The position numbers and the translations under genes are program-made. The notes under the pieces are model-generated. The model made no database searches and was not told the DNA's origin. It saw only the letters and a program-made list of their open reading frames with translations. A stretch of DNA of 64,000 nucleotides from a virus. The DNA lies in the IMG/VR virus record IMGVR_UViG_3300031965_000003, positions 5,350 through 69,349 of that record, one strand, 5' to 3'. Positions 3,233-35,798 of this stretch are shown here, piece by piece. How positions within the stretch are numbered: the first letter of the stretch is position 1; each line of letters opens with the position of its first letter.

Positions 3233-4041
3233 AGTCTTGCCCTCACCTTCTCTAATACCTGCGGATAGACCTCAGGATGTTGTTCGGCAAACTTCTGTTT
3301 TTCTTTTTTCCAGCGGTAGGCCCCAGGATTATCCGGCACGACTTCGAGCCAGAACTGAGTCCAGCGACGGTGATCTATACCGGCAAGACTGAAGTCCTGG
3401 CGCCTAACGAATCCCCTGAGTTCGATGACGGCGCAGATCTCAAGTGCCGCGATTTTCCACATTGTTAGCTGCGTCGGTGCTGGAACACCGGCGGCAACAT
3501 CGGGAATATAGTATGGTAATTCATGGCGTTTGTCTGGATTACAGTAGTGCCAGTGATCAAATACGTCGCGATCATCCAGCCTGGGCCTGAATTCGATGAT
3601 ACCGTTGTAATTTCGTCGCGCCGTGATCATCTCCAGTCCTAAAGCCTCACAAAGACTGCGGTTCGTTCTGTGATCATCGGGAATCAGTACGGCCCTATAA
3701 TCCGGCCCGGTATAACTTCCCCAGCTCGTTCGCGATTCAATGGCCTGGCTCAAGACAGAGATATTGAATTTGAGCTTGGCCTGGACGCCGATCTGAGTAC
3801 CGTCACTACGGGCCAGCAAGATATCCCAGCCCGCAGTTTCGGGATAGCAGACCCAACCGGGATATTTTCTGATCTCAGTCATGAAACTGCTGCACATCTC
3901 GGCTTCTGTCTTAAATATCGGAACTCTTCGTCTCATCCCCTTATCATCCCTAAAATAATTTCCGCCGCCACTTTCTCGCCGATGTTCTTCAGCAATTGTC
4001 CACAGGTCATGAATTTGCAATTTGCAAAAGCACGTCTGCAT
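3229..4041 (-). CDS. Hypothetical protein, possible PD-(D/E)xK nuclease fold
   Basis: YPETAGWDILL...IGVQAK resembles a D...(E/Q)xK nuclease motif. Confidence 0.5.
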   Translation of the reverse strand: MQTCFCKLQIHDLWTIAEEHRRESGGGNYFRDDKGMRRRVPIFKTEAEMCSSFMTEIRKYPGWVCYPETAGWDILLARSDGTQIGVQAKLKFNISVLSQAIESRTSWGSYTGPDYRAVLIPDDHRTNRSLCEALGLEMITARRNYNGIIEFRPRLDDRDVFDHWHYCNPDKRHELPYYIPDVAAGVPAPTQLTMWKIAALEICAVIELRGFVRRQDFSLAGIDHRRWTQFWLEVVPDNPGAYRWKKEKQKFAEQHPEVYPQVLEKVRARL

Positions 4042-4234
4042 GACACAAATCTTGAAGTTTGCACCAACAAGCTAAGTTTTTATTGCGAAGCGCCGAGAGT
4101 CCATCGATGAGTTTCGTTCGCTGTGGATAGCCGTTCATGGCATCATGCGCCGCAATAAATCTTCCCGTCTTAGACGGCTTGTTCTTTATTCCGCTTTCGA
4201 CCCATTCTCGAAATGAATCACCGCAGCAGCGCAC
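4007..4234 (-). CDS. DUF4326-like protein (C-terminal half only)
   Basis: LRNKNLACWCKLQDLCHADVLL motif; the usual N-terminal GRPSKWGNPF part is missing. Confidence 0.6.
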   Translation of the reverse strand: MRCCGDSFREWVESGIKNKPSKTGRFIAAHDAMNGYPQRTKLIDGLSALRNKNLACWCKLQDLCHADVLLQIANS

Positions 4235-5050: not shown

Positions 5051-5982
5051 GGGGAATCATTCGCCTCGACGGCAAACAATCCTTCATTCAACTGCACGGC
5101 GGACTCCAAATTGCGCCAAGCCTGCTCCCAATAACTGCGCTTCAGTTCCACGCCAATAAATCTACGGCCCATTTGCAAAGATACATAACCCGTTGAGCCG
5201 ATCCCACTAAACGGATCAAGAACAATATCGCCTGGGTTGCTCCAAAGCGTCATGGCACGTTCGATGATATCAAGAGACATTGGGCAGATATGTCTCTCGT
5301 CGTACTCGGTGCGCGCTAAGCGATAATTCAAAGTTCTGGTCGTGCGAATATCCATCCATACCGGCGAGGCATAGCGTCTCCATCGTTCGTGCGACAACAC
5401 ACCCGTCGTTGGCTCATTCTCACCTACAAAACTTTGCAAACCGTGCTCATGTGGAATAGGTTCGGGATTCTTGCCAGGCTTCCGAAATGCGAGCAGATAT
5501 TGCGGTATTCCCGCACGCACCATTGCGGAATCCTTGCAAAGCTGCTTATGCATCAGACCGATTGACTTTGTGCGCGTAGCTTCAATCAGTGGATCTTTCC
5601 AGATACAATGCTCGCTATGAAAAATAAAATGTTCCTTCTCGAAGGCTCGGATTAAATCACCGCGGAAGTCTTTGAGACCAATATGACCGTCGCGCACTTT
5701 CATGGCCGGGATGTTCATGCAATCCACGCCAATCAATCGACCGGGTTTGATGACTCGGAATAATTCTCTAACAATGAATCCAAAGTGATCGAAAAATTCA
5801 GCATCGTCGCGACTATTGCCGAGATCACGGTCAGAAGCGGAATAGACATAGAGAGACGAATATGGCGGACTGAATAGCGAAAAATGGATGCTATCTTCCG
5901 CGAGCCCGCGCAACAATTCTACACTATCGCCGTTGTATAAACTCCAGTGACTACCGATTTTTTGATCAAGAACCAATGGCAT
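5047..5982 (-). CDS. DNA N4-cytosine/N6-adenine methyltransferase (beta class)
   Basis: FSPPY catalytic motif IV precedes the VLDPFSGIGSTG SAM-binding motif I. Confidence 0.92.
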   Translation of the reverse strand: MPLVLDQKIGSHWSLYNGDSVELLRGLAEDSIHFSLFSPPYSSLYVYSASDRDLGNSRDDAEFFDHFGFIVRELFRVIKPGRLIGVDCMNIPAMKVRDGHIGLKDFRGDLIRAFEKEHFIFHSEHCIWKDPLIEATRTKSIGLMHKQLCKDSAMVRAGIPQYLLAFRKPGKNPEPIPHEHGLQSFVGENEPTTGVLSHERWRRYASPVWMDIRTTRTLNYRLARTEYDERHICPMSLDIIERAMTLWSNPGDIVLDPFSGIGSTGYVSLQMGRRFIGVELKRSYWEQAWRNLESAVQLNEGLFAVEANDSP

Positions 5983-14902: not shown

Positions 14903-15106
14903 CTATTCAGTGCGCCAGTAGCACGGATGCTCACGATCCAACTCGATCAAATCTGCAACGCTTATCTGCACCGTGCCGGCATTCAGGCTTTCCTGACACA
15001 TAAAAAGCCCTTGCCAACAACTTGCTGTCAGGCATTTATCGCAGACGGTGATTAAATCATCGAGTCGATTTTTCATCTGAAATTTACGAAATTGTATGTT
15101 GCTCAT
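14903..15106 (-). CDS. Hypothetical Cys-rich protein
   Basis: ITVCDKCLTASCWQGLFMC; start trimmed to ATG 15106 (15076 also possible). Confidence 0.6.
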   Translation of the reverse strand: MSNIQFRKFQMKNRLDDLITVCDKCLTASCWQGLFMCQESLNAGTVQISVADLIELDREHPCYWRTE

Positions 15107-15109
15107 ATC

Positions 15110-15145
15110 GAGTGAACGCCGACCTGAAGAAAAAGGGATTAAGAC
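15110..15145 (+). CRISPR. Solitary CRISPR-like repeat unit A (type III-style repeat, not an array)
   Basis: GAGTGAACGCCGACCTGAAGAAAAAGGGATTAAGAC (36 nt); the GACCTGA..AA.AAGGGATTAAGAC core and ATTAAGAC 3' end match the type III repeat family pattern as recalled; near-identical copy at 23499-23533. Confidence 0.7.
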
Positions 15146-15151
15146 TTTCCT

Positions 15152-15197
15152 CTTTCGTTCGCATGTCGTAGCAGAGACCGACATTGTTGCGACTCAT
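15152..15197. repeat. 46-bp imperfect direct repeat, copy 1 (adjacent to CRISPR-like repeat A)
   Basis: 39/46 identical to 15504-15549; first 20 nt (CTTTCGTTCGCATGTCGTAG) identical. Confidence 0.9.
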
Positions 15198-15199
15198 AG

Positions 15200-15493
15200 T
15201 TAGCATCCCTCATCGTGATAGCCGTCTTGCACGACGATCGGATCTCCACCAGCGTTGATGCCCTTGCCCTTGGATTCGACGCGCATAAGAATTATCGCAG
15301 AGTCAATATCGGGAGCCGAAACGGTATGGCAACGACCCCACTTGTCAAAGAGAGAGAGTTTCAATGTTACCAAGCGATCACAGTTGCTATGTTTCCACAG
15401 TTCCACGCCGATACAATAAATAGGCGTGGCGTCAAGTTCGTCTATTAAGTCTCTCGCTTTAGCTTCTGCTTCTTTAAGATCGTAAATCATCAC
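15200..15493 (-). CDS. Hypothetical acidic protein flanked by the 46-bp repeats
   Basis: 97-aa ORF with GGGGAG RBS. Confidence 0.65.
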   Translation of the reverse strand: MMIYDLKEAEAKARDLIDELDATPIYCIGVELWKHSNCDRLVTLKLSLFDKWGRCHTVSAPDIDSAIILMRVESKGKGINAGGDPIVVQDGYHDEGC

Positions 15494-15503
15494 GCTCTCC
15501 CCA

Positions 15504-15549
15504 CTTTCGTTCGCATGTCGTAGGGGAGACCCAAATTGTCGCGCTTCAT
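15504..15549. repeat. 46-bp imperfect direct repeat, copy 2
   Basis: See copy 1; sits just upstream of the RBS of 15200-15493. Confidence 0.9.
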
Positions 15550-15550
15550 A

Positions 15551-16528
15551 TCAGATAGCTTTCCCGCAGATATCGACTTCCCATATCGCGGCGCAGACCC
15601 CAGCAGCTTTAATCTTTTCTGGATACTTCGCGTTTTTGTGAACTTTGATCTGCGAGACTTTTAACGGACAGGCCATGAAATGTTTTGCCGCCGAATTAAA
15701 TTTCAGCGTGTGAATGGGTGACGGCGAGAAATGCAAACCGCCACCACACTCTGCTTCGCCGCCGTCCCAGTCTGCCGCTTGTGGTTTACCGCCCGACGTG
15801 TAAAAAATTCCGCGAATGCGGGCGTTGTCGGTAGAAAAATCCTCGTCAACACCCTTAAAGAGCACCGCGACGCCCTTTTTAATATCAACGCCGTAAAAAT
15901 CGCACCACTCTTTGGCGGTAGCAATTTCTGGAATTCGAATCTGTACGCCGCCTTTGGCTTTTACTTTTTGGCCATGAATAGTGACGGCGTTAAAGTCGGA
16001 AGCCGTCACCTGCGCGGAGTCGGAAGCCGTCACCTGCGCGGAGCCGTAAGCCCTCACCTGCGCGGAGCCGGAAGCCCTCACCTGCGCGGAGCCGGAAGCC
16101 CTCACCTGCGCGGAGCGCAAAGCCGTCACCTGCGCGGAGTCGGAAGCCGTCACCTGCGCGGAGTCGGAAGCCGTCACCTGCGCGGAGCCGAAAGCCCTCA
16201 CCTGCGCGGAGCCGAAAGCCGTCACCTGCGCGGAGCGCAAAGCCGTCACCTGCGCGGAGCCGTAAGCCGTCACCTGCGCGGAGTCGGAAGCCGTCACCTG
16301 CGCGGAGTCGGAAGCCCTCACCTGCGCGGAGCCGTAAGCCCTCACCTGCGCGGAGCCGAAAGCCCTCACCTGCGCGGAGCCGGAAGCCCTCACCTGCGCG
16401 GAGTCGGAAGCCGTCACCTGCGCGGAGCCGTAAATTTGAAAACTTTCCGTTCCAGTGCATTCTGGATAATCGCCGGATTCCAGCGCAGCGGTGAGTTCAC
16501 TCTGCGTTTTTACCAAAACCGTTTTCAT
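15551..16528 (-). CDS. Octapeptide-repeat beta-solenoid protein with DUF7666-like C-terminal domain
   Basis: 18 x AQV(T/R)AxxS followed by FKGVD...ECGGGLHFSPSP...KIKA. Confidence 0.75.
   Translation of the reverse strand: MKTVLVKTQSELTAALESGDYPECTGTESFQIYGSAQVTASDSAQVRASGSAQVRAFGSAQVRAYGSAQVRASDSAQVTASDSAQVTAYGSAQVTALRSAQVTAFGSAQVRAFGSAQVTASDSAQVTASDSAQVTALRSAQVRASGSAQVRASGSAQVRAYGSAQVTASDSAQVTASDFNAVTIHGQKVKAKGGVQIRIPEIATAKEWCDFYGVDIKKGVAVLFKGVDEDFSTDNARIRGIFYTSGGKPQAADWDGGEAECGGGLHFSPSPIHTLKFNSAAKHFMACPLKVSQIKVHKNAKYPEKIKAAGVCAAIWEVDICGKAI
15992..16423. repeat. 18 x 24-bp tandem repeat
   Basis: Unit (minus strand) GCGCAGGTGA(C/G)GGCT...CTCC. Confidence 0.95.
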
Positions 16529-16537
16529 ATCAATTCT

Positions 16538-16741
16538 TTACGCCCTCCCCACCAGTGGCCGGATCGCCGGCAACTCCTCAAACGACTCAAAATCGCGAGC
16601 TAGCGCCTGACGGTTCAAAACGTCAATCTGACCGTCGAGTTGGCCTAATTTGTAGGCCCAGATGAGTTTGCTTTCCGGCGACAACTCGATAAGTCCCCGA
16701 TATTCGCTAATCAGTTCGTCGTAGGTTGTGATTTTGTTCAT
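16538..16741 (-). CDS. Hypothetical protein
   Basis: 67-aa ORF with GGGGG RBS. Confidence 0.6.
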   Translation of the reverse strand: MNKITTYDELISEYRGLIELSPESKLIWAYKLGQLDGQIDVLNRQALARDFESFEELPAIRPLVGRA

Positions 16742-16868
16742 AAAGACCCCCTTGCCTGTTTTGTTACAGCCCCATGCCGTGACGAACTTGACCCCTTCAC
16801 CCGGTGTACGCTAGGCAATATTATTCGACACAATTTTAACCCGCAGGGCGGGCAGAATATTCCGCGTT

Positions 16869-17090
16869 TCATCTATCACCCCCATCATGCGGGTTGTTCA
16901 GCGCCTCGTGATAGCAGTCCCAGTGCGCCCACGTTTGTTCTTTAGTGTAAAAGTCGTGGCCGTATTTGGTGCTGTCGTCAGTTGGCGCAATGGGTTTCTT
17001 GCAGAAGACGCAGTCGCCTTTACTAAATACCAGCGCCTGTTCAGGAAATTTCCGACTGCCATAATTTAGACGATCGCGATTGACTGCCAT
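16869..17090 (-). CDS. Hypothetical Zn-finger protein
   Basis: CVFCKKPI...HWDC. Confidence 0.6.
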   Translation of the reverse strand: MAVNRDRLNYGSRKFPEQALVFSKGDCVFCKKPIAPTDDSTKYGHDFYTKEQTWAHWDCYHEALNNPHDGGDR

Positions 17091-17092
17091 CT

Positions 17093-17284
17093 TTACAGCC
17101 CCATGCTCTCAAACCACTTGAACAGCCAGTTATCGAATCGCCCCCTGACGACGAAGAGAACGGCGGCAACGAGTCCTAGCGAGACGACAACCGTAGTCAA
17201 CGTCAGCAGATCCTCAGAGATGCCTGGTTTCTGATTGCGGTTCGGCTTCGGTGCAAAATCAGAGATCAGTATTTTTCTGCTCAT
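17093..17284 (-). CDS. Small membrane protein
   Basis: One hydrophobic helix LLTLTTVVVSLGLVAAVLFVV. Confidence 0.55.
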   Translation of the reverse strand: MSRKILISDFAPKPNRNQKPGISEDLLTLTTVVVSLGLVAAVLFVVRGRFDNWLFKWFESMGL

Positions 17285-17640
17285 TGTGACTCCAATTCTT
17301 TTAGTCGCTTTTCTCGTTCAGCTATCTCCGCGCGGAGCCTATCTATTTCGGCGGCTCGTTTCATTTTCGCGTCATATTCGAGTCGAGCTGTCTTTTGGAC
17401 TTCGGTCTCAATCGGCACCGCCGTAAAGTATTTGTCGCCACGAGGATCGGGACGAACCGTAATGGAGTCGAAGCCCATCTTTTTGCCCAGCTTCGCCCAT
17501 GCCGCGTTAGCGTTTTCTTGAGGACTAGGTGACCTATAGTCACCAATCATCATCACTCGCGTGGGCTTACTACAGGCGTCGAGCAACTCGGTCAAATCCT
17601 CTTCGGACATCTCGTATTGCACTCGTGGATTCACAGTCAT
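17281..17640 (-). CDS. Hypothetical phage protein
   Basis: 119-aa ORF with ATGA overlaps. Confidence 0.65.
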   Translation of the reverse strand: MTVNPRVQYEMSEEDLTELLDACSKPTRVMMIGDYRSPSPQENANAAWAKLGKKMGFDSITVRPDPRGDKYFTAVPIETEVQKTARLEYDAKMKRAAEIDRLRAEIAEREKRLKELESQ

Positions 17641-17728
17641 GCCCTCCGAACACTGAGCACGATTAATCTCTGATACGGTTTGAGATCGACAAGGCGGCGA
17701 CGACGGAAGATTAGTGAGAGCAGTTTCT

Positions 17729-18388
17729 TCATTCGCCCCTCCTCAGTCCCACCCCATGACAGGTCTCGCAGACATAGATCGGCATGCCAGAAATCCAGCC
17801 CCTGTGCCTGAGCGCCGCGTAGCATTCCGGACATGCCGCGCTTGGTCCCTTGTCGCCATGCAGAATCGGCTGACATTTTGTTTCTTCTTTGAGACTTGGA
17901 TTGCATTGGAGATTGATCGCCTCTTTATTTTTATAATAGTGCCGAAGCGCAGCTACTCTTGCGCAGGTACGACAGGTTCGTGCCCCAGTTACGTTAACGA
18001 AAACATTGTCACCGGAATATGGATGCCCATGAGGGCAATGCGTCTTGGCGAGTTTAGCCGCTATCGCCCGCTGTCGATTCTTCTCGGTAAACCCATTTCG
18101 GTGTTTCGCTTTTCGATCCGCCATATTGTCTTGATGTGTCCCAAGAAAAAGATGTTCGGGATTAACGCAATTACAAACATCGCAGTGATGGAGAACGTGG
18201 AGACCGTCTGTTATCGCGCCATGAGTCAATTCCCAGGCGATCCTGTGTGCTCTCACTGTTTTGCCCTTCCAATGCACCAATCCGTAGCGATGATCATTGC
18301 GGCCGCCAATGGCGCCGGTCCAGAGCCAACAATTCATGGTTTTATTGACGTAGTTCCAAAAATTATCGACGTTCATTTTTGACACCAT
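17729..18388 (-). CDS. HNH homing endonuclease
   Basis: CWLWTG...YG...RAHRIAWELTHG...VLHHCDVCNCVNPEHLFLGTHQDNMAD, then THCPHGHPY...CRTC; start trimmed. Confidence 0.88.
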   Translation of the reverse strand: MVSKMNVDNFWNYVNKTMNCWLWTGAIGGRNDHRYGLVHWKGKTVRAHRIAWELTHGAITDGLHVLHHCDVCNCVNPEHLFLGTHQDNMADRKAKHRNGFTEKNRQRAIAAKLAKTHCPHGHPYSGDNVFVNVTGARTCRTCARVAALRHYYKNKEAINLQCNPSLKEETKCQPILHGDKGPSAACPECYAALRHRGWISGMPIYVCETCHGVGLRRGE

Positions 18389-18659
18389 CGCTATGGATAA
18401 TCGGAAGTGCGTAGTTTTGAGCGAAATAAAAATTTTGAAGAATGTGATCGACCGAGTCCTGATCGCCACTGGCTACAGCCTTGACGAGTCTCGCCTTGAG
18501 GTCATCGAGACGAATGACCGGGATTTTGAGATCACGCTTCGGCTTCGGGTGCGGAGATTTGATCATGGGTGATTTCCGATTGAGTTGCCTACGCAGCACC
18601 CTGCTCTTGGGCGTTGATGATTTTCCGCGCTTTGCGGATGAGAGCCGAATGTCTGGCAT
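18363..18659 (-). CDS. Hypothetical basic protein
   Basis: ORF track; true start may be internal. Confidence 0.45.
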   Translation of the reverse strand: MPDIRLSSAKRGKSSTPKSRVLRRQLNRKSPMIKSPHPKPKRDLKIPVIRLDDLKARLVKAVASGDQDSVDHILQNFYFAQNYALPIIHSDGVKNERR

Positions 18660-18768
18660 AATAAGCAGCCGCTCGACATGCCCGACCGCAGTATTTCTGC
18701 CATTCGCTCACCGGCACAAATTCCCGCTTGCACCGTCTGCATTTTTTCGGCTTTACTTTTGGAATCAT
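18589..18768 (-). CDS. Small Zn-finger protein, first gene after internal promoter
   Basis: CRRCKREF...QKYCGRAC; ATG 18768 with GGAG RBS. Confidence 0.65.
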   Translation of the reverse strand: MIPKVKPKKCRRCKREFVPVSEWQKYCGRACRAAAYYARHSALIRKARKIINAQEQGAA

Positions 18769-18810
18769 AGTGGTACTCCTTAGCACGTGCGTCATAAATT
18801 CAAATGTTCT

Positions 18811-18848
18811 ATGACGTATGTAATACGTCATGTCGCATAGTTTGTCAA
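18811..18848 (-). promoter_or_regulatory. sigma70-like promoter with palindromic operator
   Basis: TTGACA (18843-18848), 17-nt spacer, TATTAC (18820-18825); perfect inverted repeat ATGACGTAT-GTA-ATACGTCAT at 18811-18831. Confidence 0.65.
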
Positions 18849-18883
18849 GGGGGTATTTAAAAAAATGTTGATGACGCAGATTT

Positions 18884-19141
18884 TCAATCAATTATTGGGC
18901 AATTGAGTAGCGCTGCATAGTGCGATTGTAATTGCACCGATTGTTCAAGCGCCGCATTGAGTCTCTCAATTGATACGATCCGTAAAGCCCAATAACCATC
19001 ACTGCGTTCAACCCATTCACCAAATTTAACGCTTCGACCTTGAGAGTTTTCGACTTCTATGAAGCGCCCGGATTCATGACTTGGCGGACCATCAAAAACG
19101 ATATCGATATAATCTATCGGCATGCGTTTTGTTTCGTTCAT
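18884..19141 (-). CDS. Hypothetical protein
   Basis: 85-aa ORF. Confidence 0.6.
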   Translation of the reverse strand: MNETKRMPIDYIDIVFDGPPSHESGRFIEVENSQGRSVKFGEWVERSDGYWALRIVSIERLNAALEQSVQLQSHYAALLNCPIID

Positions 19142-19551
19142 TTAAATCCTCGCTTTCTTTCTCTCCGATAGTCCGCTCGTTTACTCCCGACGTTGGCGTC
19201 CATATCGAGCTTGCGCATGTCGTAAAAACCCAAGCGTTCGCAGATTCTCATCATCTGGTGTGGGGTGTTTCGTAATTCATTAAATATCAGCGCCCCGGCA
19301 CAGTGAGGCGTTTCTTCCTTTGGCTGAAAGACTTCGAAGCCATCATCATCCTCGATGAGTTCGCAAGCCTTGTGACAACCGAATTCGCCGCTGGCATGTT
19401 CCACCAAACTAGCGAAAGTAAAGCCGCTGGTTTTCAGAAATGGGCATTCTTTACAGGGCGCCGTCATGGTGTAGTTCACGGGTCCTCGCTTTCTTTCTCG
19501 CGCCGGCTTAACGGACCGGCGCTGGAGGTTGACTAGACCTGCCGCTCCCAC
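19138..19551 (-). CDS. Cys-rich hypothetical protein (PCxxCPF...CHK...CAGA; DUF6283-like pattern)
   Basis: Motif pattern; real start probably near 19470. Confidence 0.55.
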   Translation of the reverse strand: MGAAGLVNLQRRSVKPARERKRGPVNYTMTAPCKECPFLKTSGFTFASLVEHASGEFGCHKACELIEDDDGFEVFQPKEETPHCAGALIFNELRNTPHQMMRICERLGFYDMRKLDMDANVGSKRADYRRERKRGFK

Positions 19552-19578
19552 TCGGACGGGAGGTCCGCCCGGAGGAAG

Positions 19579-19920
19579 TCAAAAAGTCAGCTCGTCAAAA
19601 TCCGGATGCTCGCCGGCACGCTTGAGCGCGAGACCGCGCTCCTTATCGAGCGACTCCAGTTTAGCGACTAAACCGGCGCCATCGATCGACCATTTTTCCG
19701 CGAGGCCATCGCCCTCGCAGGCATCGAGGATCTCGTGCGCTATCTGGCCGCCGAGACCGGGCCGGATCTGGTGGCCGGTAAACGCATCGACTAGATTGAG
19801 GTCTGCGTGAGACTCGTCGAGTATCGTACCGTTGAGCACGTCTAAGATTGCAGCTTTTTCGTTGCGGCTAAAATTAATCATCGGTGATACCCTCCCACGC
19901 TTCTGAAAATTCACGTTCAA
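19579..19920 (-). CDS. Hypothetical acidic protein
   Basis: ORF track; start probably ATG near 19882. Confidence 0.55.
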   Translation of the reverse strand: MNVNFQKRGRVSPMINFSRNEKAAILDVLNGTILDESHADLNLVDAFTGHQIRPGLGGQIAHEILDACEGDGLAEKWSIDGAGLVAKLESLDKERGLALKRAGEHPDFDELTF

Positions 19921-20515
19921 AAAATAAAGAGGCTAGACCAGAGACTTGTTTTAGCCGGATCACTTCATCCCGGTCAAGACCGACTTCGCGAGATATTTTT
20001 TCATCGCTCCAATTGCGGCGGACCAGATCTACCACAATCGCGCTCATGGCATCCACCTGATGTTTGCCACGTGCCCGATTGTGTCGGATAGTAGATGCTA
20101 TCCGATCGCCACGATCAGTGCGCTCATCATTGATCACCGTGATTGGCAAACGACCGTGGACACGATCCTTGATTACAGCCACTTCACGGCCAACGCGGTT
20201 GCGATGGAACCCGTCAACCACTTCATAATCATTTTCCTCTCTGAAGGTAACAATCGGCTGAGTGTAACCGTCCTCTTCGATTGATGTCTGCAACAGGCGC
20301 ATCTCTGGGCTAGCCACGCGGTTTGGGTTGTAATCGTTAGCGCGCACCAGCTCCTGTTTCACCCAAAGAACGCAGTCCACCGGCTCATGTTTCAGCGGAC
20401 TGTACTCACGCAGCATGAGTTTGATTTCATTGATTGCGTCAATACGAGCATCATCATCTAATTCGCGCAACCCTTGTAGCGCAGAGGCTACTATGTCGAT
20501 TAGATTGTCCCCCAT
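19874..20515 (-). CDS. ibrB: IbrB-like ParB/Srx domain protein
   Basis: HEPVDCVLWV, ANDYNPNRVASPEMRLL..SIEEDGYTQPIV, VVDGFHR, ASTIRHNRARGKH. Confidence 0.88.
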   Translation of the reverse strand: MGDNLIDIVASALQGLRELDDDARIDAINEIKLMLREYSPLKHEPVDCVLWVKQELVRANDYNPNRVASPEMRLLQTSIEEDGYTQPIVTFREENDYEVVDGFHRNRVGREVAVIKDRVHGRLPITVINDERTDRGDRIASTIRHNRARGKHQVDAMSAIVVDLVRRNWSDEKISREVGLDRDEVIRLKQVSGLASLFFEREFSEAWEGITDD

Positions 20516-21705
20516 CGCATCCTCCGTTTTTTCATAATCTTTCGATAGCGCTCGTAGGCTTGACTATTGGTCTGGGTAAAGCTCAGACCTTTAAACCAGT
20601 AGTCGTTGCGCAATAGCGCTTTACATATACGCCGCCAGGACGGGGCTTTATGTTGAGCTTCCAATTTAGGATCGGCCTCATCGGGGATTCCGCTCTGGTA
20701 GCCGCGATCTCCATACCAGTGCAGAAACACGGCGATTTTGTTTTCGTAGTGATCCTTCGATCCCGCCGGCATTGTAGCGAGTAAAAATTTAGCGAAGCTC
20801 TCCCATGTATGATTTTCAGGCTTGCTGATTTTTAATCGACCGAGAATGTTGCCGCTCTCACGCGCATATAGAGCGCCGGAATTGGCGCCAGCCACACGCG
20901 CCACGACTTTGCCCCAGGTCTCCGGCTCGATGACATGATACAGCCAAAGACCTTTGCGCTGGTCATCTCCATAAGGCTGGCAGATACGCATCTGATGGAT
21001 AGTCAAACCGGCCTGATACATGCGGTCGTAGAGAGCGTTATAACAGACACCTTCCCGCGCCGTGTAGGTCCACAGATCCTCGGTGCGCCAATCATAGATT
21101 GGATAGATATTATAGACCGCGCCGCTTTTCCATGTCGTCCATTGTTTGTCATCGAAGCGCGTCTTGTCCGCGATCAACGTGCGAAACCGATTAAGCGATT
21201 CGTCCGCGCGAATGCCGACGAAACAGGCGGTCAGTTTATTCCCGCCGTACCAGTGGCCGAAAAACTCCACAAACTCCTCGAACTCCATGCCTCGATGAAA
21301 AAATGGGAACATCGATCCGTCGGTTATTGCGAGCTTTGGCGGCTGGCGCACCCAATCATCGCGCCGGTTCGGGTCCCAGCATTGCCAGCGTGGCTCGATC
21401 ATGCTGACGGCGTTGCGCAGGTTGATAGGCAGGGCGATCCAGTACGGCTCGATCTGATTTTTATAAATATTATAGCAGCGCTCAGCATGCGTCATCGTCA
21501 GTTTGTATTGCGCTTCAAGATCGATCAGCAGCAGTCCGACTTTGCGGTTGCGTTTCTTGGCCTCGGCCATAACCAAGTGCAGCATCACAGTGGAGTCTTT
21601 GCCCGCCGAAAAACTCAAGTAAACTTTCTCGAACGTGTCGAACACCCACGATATCCGCTGTCGCACTGCGGTCAACACGTCTAGGCCGAGCGGACGCTTA
21701 GGCAT
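20500..21705 (-). CDS. ibrA: IbrA-like PAPS-reductase/PP-loop protein with DUF3440
   Basis: SFSAGKDS PP-loop, VGIRADESLNR, YPIYDW, MRICQPYGDDQRKGL, PSWRRICKALLRNDYW. Confidence 0.9.
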   Translation of the reverse strand: MPKRPLGLDVLTAVRQRISWVFDTFEKVYLSFSAGKDSTVMLHLVMAEAKKRNRKVGLLLIDLEAQYKLTMTHAERCYNIYKNQIEPYWIALPINLRNAVSMIEPRWQCWDPNRRDDWVRQPPKLAITDGSMFPFFHRGMEFEEFVEFFGHWYGGNKLTACFVGIRADESLNRFRTLIADKTRFDDKQWTTWKSGAVYNIYPIYDWRTEDLWTYTAREGVCYNALYDRMYQAGLTIHQMRICQPYGDDQRKGLWLYHVIEPETWGKVVARVAGANSGALYARESGNILGRLKISKPENHTWESFAKFLLATMPAGSKDHYENKIAVFLHWYGDRGYQSGIPDEADPKLEAQHKAPSWRRICKALLRNDYWFKGLSFTQTNSQAYERYRKIMKKRRMRWGTI

Positions 21706-22067
21706 CGCATCACCTCGTCGCGCGACAGCGTTTCTTTTTCAAAGCCGTTGTACCGGCAAAAATATCGGTTGAACTTTTTCCAGCCGAGAGGTTCGTGAAC
21801 CTCGTAAATCTTGCCGTCATCGAGAATAAAGTGCAGATACACACCGCGCGATGCCGCCCCATTAGATTGAGAATAGTCTTTGGCTCCTCTAAGGAACTGC
21901 CGATCAAACCCGCGCTGCGAGTCGAGCCCTTTAATCTCCGCTACCCAAGGCCGCTGAGGCAGCGGCCGGAATAGATGTTTCGGCGGAGTCAGTCCATGTT
22001 TTTTGTGCATGGAAATCTCGTAGTGACGATTCTCCGCGACGAATTCCAAGCCGAGCGAATGTTTCAT
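21681..22067 (-). CDS. Hypothetical protein directly upstream of ibrA
   Basis: PWVAEIKGLD...RQFLRGAKDYSQSN...SRGVYLHFIL; overlaps the ibrA start. Confidence 0.7.
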   Translation of the reverse strand: MKHSLGLEFVAENRHYEISMHKKHGLTPPKHLFRPLPQRPWVAEIKGLDSQRGFDRQFLRGAKDYSQSNGAASRGVYLHFILDDGKIYEVHEPLGWKKFNRYFCRYNGFEKETLSRDEVMRCLSVRSA

Positions 22068-22675
22068 CTCGCCCCTCCCGGCGCCGGCAAGGCGAGAGCT
22101 TTGGCCGCGCCATCGATCAAGCCTGCCATCTTTTTATATTCAAGGCTCATCGATTGAAACTGCCCCCCCGTCTCCTGCGCGAGTAATCGTAAAAACTCCT
22201 CGCCGGCATGAGGTCTAGGCCCAACATAAAAAACATCAATTTGGACACCCCGGCTTTGCATCTGGCGGGCCTCGGCGAGCGCCGCGCTGGTGTCATCAGG
22301 GAGGCCATCGCTGATTAACACACAATGTTTTGCCCCCTTTTGCCGCGCGCTCGCCAGCGCTTCGTGCAACGGAGTCGATCCCCGTGGCTCTGGGATGTAA
22401 TCCGCGACATGCTCGCCACGGCCATTCCACGGATCGGGAAAAATAATCTGAGTAAATCCAACGCGCTGTCGCAACGCAGTGACGATCTCGCGCAGTGCGT
22501 CGATTTTCGCGCGCCCAGGCTCTACATAATCAGCCATAGATCCTGAGCAGTCGAGCAGTAAAAAAGAGTGGTTTGCCTGCTCTGCGCGGCGCTGTTGTTG
22601 TTGCCTGTCTCTGACGGTCTCAGAGAGGGATTTTCTTTGCAGAGAATTTTGCAATTTGGCGACTAAATCGGTCAT
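22064..22675 (-). CDS. von Willebrand factor A domain protein
   Basis: MIDAS motif LLLDCSGSM...GSTPLHEAL...LISDGLPD. Confidence 0.9.
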   Translation of the reverse strand: MTDLVAKLQNSLQRKSLSETVRDRQQQQRRAEQANHSFLLLDCSGSMADYVEPGRAKIDALREIVTALRQRVGFTQIIFPDPWNGRGEHVADYIPEPRGSTPLHEALASARQKGAKHCVLISDGLPDDTSAALAEARQMQSRGVQIDVFYVGPRPHAGEEFLRLLAQETGGQFQSMSLEYKKMAGLIDGAAKALALPAPGGAR

Positions 22676-22683
22676 GACTCCTC

Positions 22684-23436
22684 CTATAGCGCAAGTGCAA
22701 CGGCCTTTTTGATCGCCGCTTTCAGCGCTGTCGCGCCTTCCGCATCCGTGCCGGGCCGAAACGCCAACTCTTTGAGTTTCTGATAGGTCGCCCAGGCTGA
22801 CTCTGCCTCGGTATTCAGTTCGCCCGTCTCCGCGCGATGGATAATCAAGTCCTCTAGTGCGAGCAACGCCGCGAGTTCCTTCCCGTCAGAATTTAACCCG
22901 GCGGCTTCGGATGATGGCGCATCGGCCACGGGCGCCGATTGCGCGCCAGACTGCTCGATGATTTGATAATCCCACGCCGGTTGATCTTTCAGGGCGATGC
23001 CGCGCGGGACATCGCGAATTTCCACTATTGCGTTTTTTGCGACGATCGCGGGATTTTTGCGCGAGCCGCCACTACCAAGATCACCATCACTAACGATCAC
23101 GCCCGTCCCCAAGCGCACGCCGCCGTCGCGGCCATACTTGAGTTGCGCAATTTGCCTGCCGGCGACAAACAAGGAATCGTAATGACCGTTGATCCCGATG
23201 CGGATCGTCACTAGATCAACTGCCGCCTCGGTCCCGTCAACACCGAATATTTCTCGGCACAGTCCCCTGACTCGCGCCTCGTCTCGCGGATCAAACGACC
23301 ATTCTCGGCTCTCAGCCTGCCAAGTGCCGCCTAATTTTTTTGCCGCTGCGGGGAAATCGGGGTGATAAGGGCTGGAGATGCGGAGACGTTGACGACCATC
23401 TTTTAGGACGACCGTCCGATAATTGATATTTGACAT
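22684..23436 (-). CDS. Hypothetical phage early protein
   Basis: SPYHPDFPAAAKKLGGTW...WSF N-terminal module; GGAGG RBS. Confidence 0.7.
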   Translation of the reverse strand: MSNINYRTVVLKDGRQRLRISSPYHPDFPAAAKKLGGTWQAESREWSFDPRDEARVRGLCREIFGVDGTEAAVDLVTIRIGINGHYDSLFVAGRQIAQLKYGRDGGVRLGTGVIVSDGDLGSGGSRKNPAIVAKNAIVEIRDVPRGIALKDQPAWDYQIIEQSGAQSAPVADAPSSEAAGLNSDGKELAALLALEDLIIHRAETGELNTEAESAWATYQKLKELAFRPGTDAEGATALKAAIKKAVALAL

Positions 23437-23447
23437 GGTATCCTCCC

Positions 23448-23474
23448 CGCTCCGGGTCAGCGGAGCGTTTTTTT
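23448..23474 (+). terminator. Hairpin with T7 tail (plus-strand terminator; on the minus strand it overlaps an RBS)
   Basis: CGCTCCG-GGTCAG-CGGAGCG followed by TTTTTTT. Confidence 0.55.
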
Positions 23475-23479
23475 AGGCT

Positions 23480-23497
23480 CGGTTAGCTCCGGGCGGG
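23480..23497. repeat. Early-region leader motif, copy 1 (minus strand CCCGCCCGGAGCTAACCG)
   Basis: Shared with 24964-24991 and 25284-25311; the 11-nt core also occurs at 24038-24048. Confidence 0.85.
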
Positions 23498-23498
23498 C

Positions 23499-23533
23499 GA
23501 GTGAACGACGACCTGAAGAAAAGGGATTAAGAC
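23499..23533 (+). CRISPR. Solitary CRISPR-like repeat unit B
   Basis: GAGTGAACGACGACCTGAAGAAAAGGGATTAAGAC; differs from unit A by one substitution and one A deletion. Confidence 0.7.
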
Positions 23534-23569
23534 CATGCTGCACACTCACCGCGTGGCAATAACACGTCT

Positions 23570-23854
23570 TCATTCCTCCAAGAGCAAGAAGCCTTCTGGG
23601 CGATCATTTTTTGCATTATTAAAGTAGATTCTGGTTGTCATACAATTCCGATCAAATGTAAGCGATTTGGTTTTCAGAGTTTTACAACCGACCCAACCGC
23701 TATGTTTCAGGGCACGCATTATGGTTTTATTGTCACAATCCTGATCATCGGGTAAGGTACAAACATGAGATGTTTTTAACACATTAAAAACGTTCCACCC
23801 GTCCTTTTTGGACCCCCATTTTTCATAGATGTAAACTCTCCATGTCCGTTTCAT
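23570..23854 (-). CDS. Hypothetical protein
   Basis: 94-aa ORF in early operon. Confidence 0.65.
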   Translation of the reverse strand: MKRTWRVYIYEKWGSKKDGWNVFNVLKTSHVCTLPDDQDCDNKTIMRALKHSGWVGCKTLKTKSLTFDRNCMTTRIYFNNAKNDRPEGFLLLEE

Positions 23855-24036
23855 GTTAATTGCTCCTTACTCCTTAGTTGACTAATTTGACGTTGTGCAT
23901 ATTGCCAAATCAAACGTTCAGTGCAGTGAGCTTCCAGCATCTGCGACATGGCCGTTGCTAAAGCTTTCGCAGCACACTCACCATGTGTGGACGCCATTAT
24001 TTCCGCATAATAGTTAAATTTTTCATCTACATTCAT
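23851..24036 (-). CDS. Hypothetical protein
   Basis: ATG 24036 preceded by CCCGGAGCTAAA. Confidence 0.6.
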   Translation of the reverse strand: MNVDEKFNYYAEIMASTHGECAAKALATAMSQMLEAHCTERLIWQYAQRQISQLRSKEQLT

Positions 24037-24055
24037 TTTAGCTCCGGGTAGGCTA

Positions 24056-24406
24056 TTATATTTCCGAGATAACGTAGGTAATCGCCGGGCCTGCAATTGC
24101 TCGTAGACGATCAATACCTAGCTCAACCCCTCGATCTGCTGGGGTCAAAGCTAGCGGTATCTCAGTAACGCTAGCCGCCAATACGGCTAGTGACAGTGGG
24201 AGCACGCCAACCACGTGGCATGCCTCTACATCGTCAGGCTCCGCGTGAGCAATCACGCGAGCATTGTCAGTGACAAGCCCGCGCTCTCGCAGTAGCTCAA
24301 CGAGCGCCGGGTGACGAGTTACCACTACCACGGGCGCGCACGGTGCGCCGGCATCCGGTACGATGCCGCAAAAACGGCATCGACCGTTAGTAAATTTGTG
24401 TTTCAT
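24056..24406 (-). CDS. Csx16 (VVA1548)-family protein; candidate cyclic-oligoadenylate ring nuclease / anti-CRISPR
   Basis: VVVVTRHPALVELLRERG...VIAHAEPDDV...VVGVLPLSLA...LALTPADRGVEL matches recalled Csx16 consensus (SRHPGAIEWL..QG...VAHLD..D...VIGTLPVHLA...LDLP..LRG.EL) along its length. Confidence 0.78.
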   Translation of the reverse strand: MKHKFTNGRCRFCGIVPDAGAPCAPVVVVTRHPALVELLRERGLVTDNARVIAHAEPDDVEACHVVGVLPLSLAVLAASVTEIPLALTPADRGVELGIDRLRAIAGPAITYVISEI

Positions 24407-24422
24407 TTTCTTCTTGTTCTCC

Positions 24423-24728
24423 TTATTCTGTTTCCGCGGCGACAGCGTCGCTGAGCTTTTTCCGCTCGGCGGCTGTTAATTGCCGGATGCCGCCACGCTC
24501 GGTCTGGATCGCCGCGCTCTCGTACTGCGATTGTCCGCTTGATGCCACCAAGCGGACCACCTCCCTAAAACCCTGAGCCCGCACGGTCTGGCATAGATCA
24601 TCCCAGACAACCCACGCCTTATCGTGGATAGAGCGGGCTGGTTTAACCACTGTCACGGTCGCTGCTGTCGCGGGCAGAGGACTGCCAGGTCGCCACCCCG
24701 GCGGCGGTATTGTAGTAATTTTTATCAT
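24423..24728 (-). CDS. Hypothetical protein
   Basis: 101-aa ORF. Confidence 0.55.
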   Translation of the reverse strand: MIKITTIPPPGWRPGSPLPATAATVTVVKPARSIHDKAWVVWDDLCQTVRAQGFREVVRLVASSGQSQYESAAIQTERGGIRQLTAAERKKLSDAVAAETE

Positions 24729-24952
24729 TCTATTGTTCTTTTATTATAATATTCCGTAATGGAGCCTGGGTTGCCTAACCCCTCCCACTCCTCCCATAGA
24801 CAAGCCGCTGCGCGGGTAGCTGCTGTGGCATCCACGCTAGCCGCGATTGCCGAGATCGCGGCTAGATTGGCATCGCTGATCCAGCTGCGGCAGAGGGAGA
24901 CTGCCTCCCTCACGCCGATCCCTGCCGCGGTCAGGTCTAATACGTTAAACAT
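24725..24952 (-). CDS. Hypothetical protein
   Basis: GGAGG RBS directly after the leader hairpin. Confidence 0.6.
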   Translation of the reverse strand: MFNVLDLTAAGIGVREAVSLCRSWISDANLAAISAIAASVDATAATRAAACLWEEWEGLGNPGSITEYYNKRTIE

Positions 24953-24963
24953 TTCGTTCCTCC

Positions 24964-24991
24964 GTTCTCGGCCCGGTTAGCTCCGGGCGGG
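24964..24991. repeat. 28-bp direct repeat / leader hairpin, copy 2
   Basis: GTTCTCGGCCCGGTTAGCTCCGGGCGGG, identical to 25284-25311. Confidence 0.92.
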
Positions 24992-25011
24992 CTTGCTGGT
25001 GCGCTCCATTA

Positions 25012-25519: not shown

Positions 25520-25552
25520 TGTGTAATTTAACACATTCCGCATATTTGTCAA
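25520..25552 (-). promoter_or_regulatory. Early sigma70-like promoter with overlapping inverted repeat
   Basis: TTGACA (25547-25552), 16-nt spacer, TGn-TAAATT (25525-25530); TGTGT-N6-ACACA brackets the -10; AT-rich upstream tract. Confidence 0.65.
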
Positions 25553-35428: not shown

Positions 35429-35798
35429 TTTTACGGTCCAAATAATGTGTCATGCCGCAGCCCAACCGCTCGTACCAGCGCCAAATGTCTCTTACTGCCA
35501 GCTCAATAACCGTGGCTACAACCCCCAACAACAAAGGCAACCTGTAGATCAAGGCTCGATAGGGGTACTCAATAAACAAACCAATAAAGTTATTGTTTGG
35601 CTCAATGATGGCATCAAGATCAAACACGATGCTCCATGCCATAGCTATCGCCAAACCTATTATTGCATAGGTGCGAGGGCTGAGTAGACTGGTCTGATGT
35701 GATAGTATCCATAGACATGACGTTAAAATCAGCACCGCGAACAACAACGCTACAAAGGTCAAAACCACGTACATGATGCCCCCTCTTTTGCTAAACAT
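35265..35798 (-). CDS. Multi-pass membrane protein next to endolysin
   Basis: Three hydrophobic segments; 3' part overlaps 35201-35428. Confidence 0.5.
   Translation of the reverse strand: MFSKRGGIMYVVLTFVALLFAVLILTSCLWILSHQTSLLSPRTYAIIGLAIAMAWSIVFDLDAIIEPNNNFIGLFIEYPYRALIYRLPLLLGVVATVIELAVRDIWRWYERLGCGMTHYLDRKNEYKHDTIERRSVVTRFASWCWDRWTIRVMERASLSNRKDNEPGKDLRVDAHRK

Follow-up and report, generated by a model that had tools for sequence, protein, structure and literature searches.

Solitary type III-B CRISPR repeats antisense to the genes of a soil phage and their possible role as a self-disguise

What does a single CRISPR repeat do between the genes of a phage? This question is raised by a soil phage genome (IMG/VR record IMGVR_UViG_3300031965_000003, 95,009 nt, about 80% complete) which carries nearly all of its genes on the minus strand. 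The window analysed is a stretch of 64,000 nt (positions 5,350 to 69,349 of the record), and coordinates refer to it unless the full record (G000) is named. Two copies of the repeat were found in the same orientation, with their crRNA sense on the plus strand: copy B (23498-23533, 36 nt) and copy A (15109-15145, 37 nt). The gap between them is 8,352 nt and the distance from start to start 8,389. A preliminary description had noted two changes over these 8.35 kb; the copies differ indeed by one substitution and one missing A, which was lost from B (self-BLAST, E 1.9e-7). Self-BLAST of the whole contig (95,009 nt) revealed these two copies only. Copy B is intergenic, with the genes 23570-23854 and 22684-23436 on either side. 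Copy A separates a Shine-Dalgarno-like sequence from the ATG at 15106; since homologues of the next gene begin downstream of the repeat, A is intergenic as well. There is no cas operon near A or B, csx16 being the only cas-named gene among the scanned ORFs.

That the repeat is CRISPR-like was borne out by the arrays of other genomes. The last 25 nt of A are identical to array repeats in several metagenome-assembled genomes (MAGs) of Nitrospirota, with arrays of up to 118 repeats, and 15 of 401 Nitrospirota genomes match with at most two mismatches. A close variant of this 25-nt core forms the array repeat in one Thiotrichales MAG. The 5′ 11 nt of the repeat differ among species, and the phage version of them was not found in the collections searched, JGI metagenomes included. 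An independent soil run, X3, delivered a contig of depth 15 in which the repeat is followed by 29 other letters and again by the repeat, with a period of 69 nt. This is an array with the repeat of the phage, and it co-occurs in run X3 with a relative of the phage. Conservation of the 35-mer as coding sequence only, with no counterpart in arrays, had been named in the preliminary description as evidence to the contrary; since array counterparts exist, A and B are regarded as solitary CRISPR repeats and not as coding sequence. The Nitrospirota arrays adjoin cmr4, cmr5, cmr6, Cas10/Cmr2 and CARF genes. Cas10/Cmr2 lies near the array in all four genomes with both positions listed and is present in five of five tested; Cas3 sits elsewhere in the array-bearing genomes. 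From these neighbours the repeat can be assigned to type III-B. Copy B thus qualifies as a viral solitary repeat unit (SRU), that is, a known repeat which stands alone, intergenic and without a cas operon.

The host spacers are 32-39 nt long, and none of 457 (nor any of an earlier set of 284) matches either flank or any other part of the phage. Nitrospirota as host is therefore not proven, and related repeats are known outside this phylum too (L004, L050). In Nitrospira arrays (L012:303-338; G108 near 993770), a lone repeat was seen past the trailer end that has diverged in its 5′ part but retains the 3′ 25 nt. The A/B repeat had no match in Rfam, its exact sequence is absent from IMG/VR, and a search of cultured phages gave chance matches only. 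In copy B a 3-bp stem is followed by the 8-nt handle at 23526-23533, and hairpin and handle are intact in both copies. Folding of the repeat alone was no better than that of shuffled sequences, and the same holds for the host repeat.

The orientation of the copies deserves particular attention. From the array leaders and the degenerate terminal repeats, the crRNA sense of A and B can be assigned to the plus strand of the window, and the flanking genes of both copies all lie on the opposite strand. Both copies hence oppose phage transcription, and the early mRNA would bear the reverse complement of the repeat, including the anti-tag that stops Cas10 signalling. The 36 nt located 3′ of the handle of B on the plus strand (23534-23569), in the position of a spacer, would stand on this mRNA directly 5′ of the anti-tag. 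In the crRNA sense, neither B (p 0.22) nor A (p 0.8) has a significant sigma-70 match within 100 nt, and terminator-like hairpins are found on the plus strand just before both copies. One of these (23448-23476) lies ahead of the ribosome binding site of gene 22684-23436 and is terminator-like on the plus strand, 22 nt before B. On the minus strand, a sigma-70-like promoter at 25525-25552 heads the early genes; it matches the consensus at 10 of 12 positions with an extended -10 region, and from this consensus match it is predicted to transcribe csx16 together with the anti-repeat. No sigma factor genes were found on the contig.

As described before, copy B directly abuts a leader motif: the repeat ends at 23498 and the extended motif starts at 23497. 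This repeated early leader motif (23470-23497, minus strand), with B at its 5′ edge, recurs near 24038, 24977 and 25297, the extended form being common to the B site, 24977 and 25297. Its 11-mer core occurs four times versus 0.84 expected. Two of the copies delimit a cassette of about 1.5 kb (23498-24970, minus strand), the left border being the motif at B and the right border the copy at 24964-24998 (minus strand), as defined by repeat comparison and by a joint in run X3. The cassette comprises copy B and the ORFs 23570-23854, 23851-24036, csx16 (24056-24406), 24423-24728 and 24725-24952, and it is absent from a close relative in X3, pieces of which are 89-99% alike over 19.6-23.2 kb. One X3 contig joins 23437 to 24971 via the leader motif, and the intervening sequence contains the hairpin loop by which the 23448 leader is distinguished. 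Copy B and the five cassette ORFs are thus missing from the relative, as read from this one contig at a depth of 4.8, which would look alike for gain and for loss.

These data also bear on the proposal that A and B are the recombination ends of an 8.35-kb block. The vWA protein named as part of this block was confirmed by Pfam, and A and B are direct repeats which could recombine. However, no joint of 15145 to 23534 turned up in four runs (searched as contig sets, which drop rare variants), the border of the indel is the leader motif, and the relative without B retains pieces of the block. We conclude that the mobile unit is the 1.5-kb cassette and not the 8.35-kb block. A second proposal was a conserved mini-peptide under selection. 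Both mini-ORFs do exist and start at upstream stops: the one across B (23457-23573, minus strand, 38 codons, start at 23573) overlaps the stop of 23570-23854 by ATGA, and the one starting at ATG 15197 (37 aa) begins 2 nt after the stop of 15200-15490. The common peptide frame holds for four codons (LNPF), beyond which the deletion shifts B to the other open frame. Two of the three frames of the reversed repeat are free of stops by default, and such peptides also arise in chance ORFs across host arrays. Four shared codons, the frameshift, the open frames and the chance ORFs together lead us to reject the peptide reading and to judge the mini-ORF across B incidental. Taken as one alternative, mini-peptide or block ends, this explanation is very improbable.

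In silico removal of the repeats was informative. Without copy A, the Shine-Dalgarno sequence is located 5-6 nt before the ATG at 15106; without copy B, a 6-of-7 match to the sister leader is restored (probability about 0.005, estimated by hand with the registers tried allowed for). On contig L052, a similar repeat interrupts a phage ORF. The reconstruction suggests that A and B are clean insertions into phage sequence. A natural empty site was found for neither A nor B, and the search for empty sites of other viral repeats (L081, L094, L097) gave no relatives. On four contigs (L017, L065, L081, L094), an antisense type III repeat directly follows a Shine-Dalgarno-like sequence, and a neighbouring gene start has a duplicate of this sequence. 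Around copy A, a 53-nt direct repeat (84%) at 15146-15198, that is 3′ of the handle, and at 15498-15550 brackets ORF 15200-15490, and A lies at the downstream border of this unit as B does at the cassette border. The product of ORF 15200-15490 weakly resembles ribosome hibernation factors in structure (TM about 0.6, from a poor model) and is a candidate type III anti-CRISPR.

Further repeats are present on the record. A protein with 8-residue tandem repeats is encoded at 15551-16528, and a second tandem repeat, of 12 nt, is found at both contig ends, so that a repeat gene may close the record into a circle. A perfect 52-nt repeat occurs at 35433-35484 and at G000 82702-82753, 42 kb apart, and repeats of 75 and 230 nt (82-88%) connect G000 7.4-7.9 kb with 80.6-81.2 kb.

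The gene 24056-24406 (minus strand), 520 bp from copy B, belongs to the Csx16 family (PF09652) and is predicted by profile and structure match to encode a cA4 ring nuclease. It scores 49 bits against PF09652 (cut-off 25) and E 2e-12 against the PADLOC Csx16 profile; the NCBIfam library gave no match. The best structural match of the modelled product is the AcrIII-1 homologue AFV3-109 (Z 4.9, rmsd 2.9, 79 aligned residues). For another member of the family, Csx16 was demonstrated to be a cA4 ring nuclease (10.1101/2024.09.24.614671). No relatives of the gene were found in IMG/VR. Two long contigs with close Csx16 homologues resemble phage early regions. Close homologues (L056, L058-L060) are located among small genes on phage-like contigs, which points to a phage-borne Csx16 clade. 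The remaining cassette ORFs, like ORF 15200-15490, have no family match.

Are such repeats also antisense in other viruses? Our survey of solitary repeats in viral contigs was prompted by five discovery cases (A, B, L014, L017 and L052), all of them antisense. It covered two type III repeat families, with types I-F and I-C as controls, after de-duplication and with gene direction taken from an ORF heuristic; for the second type III family and for both controls, the conventional crRNA sense was assumed. Among 18 type III units, 14 are antisense, one is sense and three are mixed, counts which are small and come from elements that may share descent. Among the matches listed, type I-F yielded 3 antisense, 17 sense and 5 mixed cases and type I-C 12, 37 and 17, which gives 54 sense to 15 antisense for both controls among these matches. 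Without the discovery cases, type III is still 9:1 antisense (binomial p 0.02), and the held-out units differ from type I, among the matches listed, with a Fisher p of 5e-5. A second, stricter gene-calling rule resulted in antisense to sense ratios of 11:0 for type III versus 11:39 for type I, again among the matches listed. Three matches (L013, L015, L016) are probably due to chance and were left out of the antisense cases. The genes beside the other type III repeats contain no known anti-CRISPR family according to Pfam.

Some single cases are worth mentioning. Two antisense repeats of type III-A type (L069:951-970 and L081:5465-5484) have strong sigma-70 promoters 6-17 nt upstream in the crRNA sense and are the best candidates for expressed cis-antisense guides. 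About 290 nt upstream of a homologue of gene 22684-23436 in a distant phage, an antisense repeat-like sequence with a 3′ end of class 1 type (L054:9678-9712) lies inside a called ORF and may be due to chance. A metagenome contig of 1.2 kb contains a single repeat with the four-A loop of B (L049:112-147), located upstream of an apparent antitoxin-PIN toxin pair.

The antisense bias of type III, which is absent in type I, suggests that phages borrow the "self" mark of the host. We tentatively favour the explanation that copy B is a self-disguise against type III-B, and give it nearly an even chance. It starts from what was observed, namely the identity of the repeat, its link to type III-B, its orientation, the cassette indel and the orientation bias across viruses. 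An antisense repeat gives the anti-tag geometry, and only RNA-targeting systems impose a strand, which is why self-disguise is preferred here. A host type III-B repeat would have been inserted in a phage early leader, oriented like an antisense array transcript. The early mRNA would then present 36 nt of phage sequence followed by the complement of the crRNA 5′ handle, and a host Cmr complex with a spacer to these 36 nt would bind and cut the mRNA and read it as self. Under this reading Cas10 would make no cyclic oligoadenylate (cOA) and the CARF effectors would stay off, and Csx16 from the same cassette may mop up cA4 made at other targets. A host spacer presumably once targeted the B site, and the insertion, by recombination at a matching spacer or by integration into an array and subsequent excision, would have been selected for disguise. 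For a type III-B complex, targets complementary to the handle were reported to be still cut, with cOA at background (PMC8376896), and in vivo such targets abolish type III immunity (10.1101/369744). The wider claim, that viruses systematically set type III repeats antisense so that their mRNA mimics the host array and is cut without the Cas10 alarm, is possible and somewhat doubtful. Against self-disguise, each repeat protects one target site, and the strong crRNA-sense promoters at L069 and L081 fit an expressed guide better.

Such a guide or decoy would be a plus-strand transcript that host Cas6 processes and Cmr takes up. It would either titrate Cas proteins or direct cleavage of the phage early mRNA in cis, and handle pairing would then prevent cOA formation. 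The intact hairpins and handles of A and B and the promoters directly before L069 and L081 agree with it. The 5′ arm of B also pairs with the far spacer end on the plus strand (z -2.2, with boundaries chosen afterwards), the spacer of A has a second near-match 352 nt away, and published RNA anti-CRISPRs (Racrs) adjoin acr genes (PMC10651486). The missing plus-strand promoters at A and B and the terminator-like hairpins before them speak against it, and second matches on the spacer side are not clearly above the control side (5 vs 3 of 10). Overall, we consider a guide or decoy rather unlikely. For B, the spacer side at 23534-23550 agrees with 23966-23982 in ORF 23851-24036 at 13 of 17 nt, with five identical codons (p 0.27 genome-wide). 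As a general rule, targeting of the neighbouring gene by the spacer was not above control and was discarded. The anti-repeat could also act as an antisense blocker, whereby the early mRNA pairs with every pre-crRNA repeat over 25-36 bp and stops Cas6 processing or triggers cleavage of the duplex, so that all crRNAs of the array drop. Orientation, the full-length copy and the place in the predicted earliest operon together with csx16 are consistent with this, and a benefit beyond one site would be explained. However, a blocker should work on type I arrays as well, yet type I solitary repeats are mostly sense; crRNPs already present would presumably be unaffected, and no precedent was found in the literature searched. 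A blocker is therefore improbable.

Self-disguise has also to be weighed against a repeat of no use at all. Copies may have entered by recombination or aberrant Cas1-Cas2 activity and be tolerated in leaders as neutral scars, B hitchhiking with the csx16 cassette and the orientation having no other cause than that type III spacers must be antisense to mRNA to be useful. One relative lacks B, B is one base shorter already, and for stray type III repeats of hosts a lack of function was concluded (10.1101/2023.03.03.530964). The presence of two insertions with intact handles in the same genome, one of them within an anti-type-III cassette, speaks against this, and we regard a scar as unlikely. 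If the orientation stems from the targeting spacer, the disguise would come automatically, and a scar then differs from self-disguise mainly in selection. An attachment site for integration into a CRISPR array, as in phage AP1.1 (10.1101/2020.10.09.333658), is hardly credible. The contig does show a tyrosine-recombinase match, but it is truncated to the C-terminal part (G000 3719-4120, before the window), in an open frame of 133 aa at distances of 16 and 25 kb to the repeats. An attP would be a single site next to an intact integrase; A and B are two sites within an operon, and neither has this arrangement. Serine recombinase genes were not found on the contig.

Copy B resembles the viral SRUs, or Racrs, of Camara-Wilpert et al. 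2023 (PMC10651486) in being a single host repeat, intergenic, without cas genes or array, and near a putative anti-CRISPR gene. The Racrs tested there belong to types I-F, I-E, I-C and V-A, are transcribed from a promoter in the crRNA sense and are bound by Cas proteins. In contrast, copy B is of type III-B, antisense to its operon, and shows no such promoter in a scan for the sigma-70 type. We found no mention of orientation, antisense or type III in that study. The order of target and handle complement on the phage mRNA corresponds to type III tag:anti-tag discrimination, which is known as a safeguard of the host from work with engineered targets (10.1101/369744; PMC8376896); no report of natural phages using it was found in the literature searched. 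The match of the csx16 product to AFV3-109 is of the kind reported for Csx16 (10.1101/2024.09.24.614671) and connects it with phage ring nucleases such as AcrIII-1 and phage Csx16/Csx20. Among 28,114 cultured phage genomes, Csx16 was detected in only 2; here csx16 shares a cassette with the repeat. Phage AP1.1 also carries sequence identical to a CRISPR repeat, namely an 8-bp attP core accompanied by an integrase in a type II-A context (10.1101/2020.10.09.333658), whereas here there are two full repeats and a distant integrase fragment only.

Our study contributes a strand survey with controls as well as evidence that speaks against the A-B block model. Point mutations rarely free a phage from type III systems, which tolerate mismatches. 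If self-disguise is true, gaining a handle complement would be a one-step escape via the safety catch of type III itself. It would be a distinct nucleic-acid counter-defence, on the strand opposite to type I Racrs. Here it would share one mobile cassette with a Csx16 ring nuclease, and the four small ORFs beside csx16 are candidate type III anti-CRISPRs. Type III and type I repeats are biased to opposite strands, which would split the present "Racr candidates" into two functional classes.
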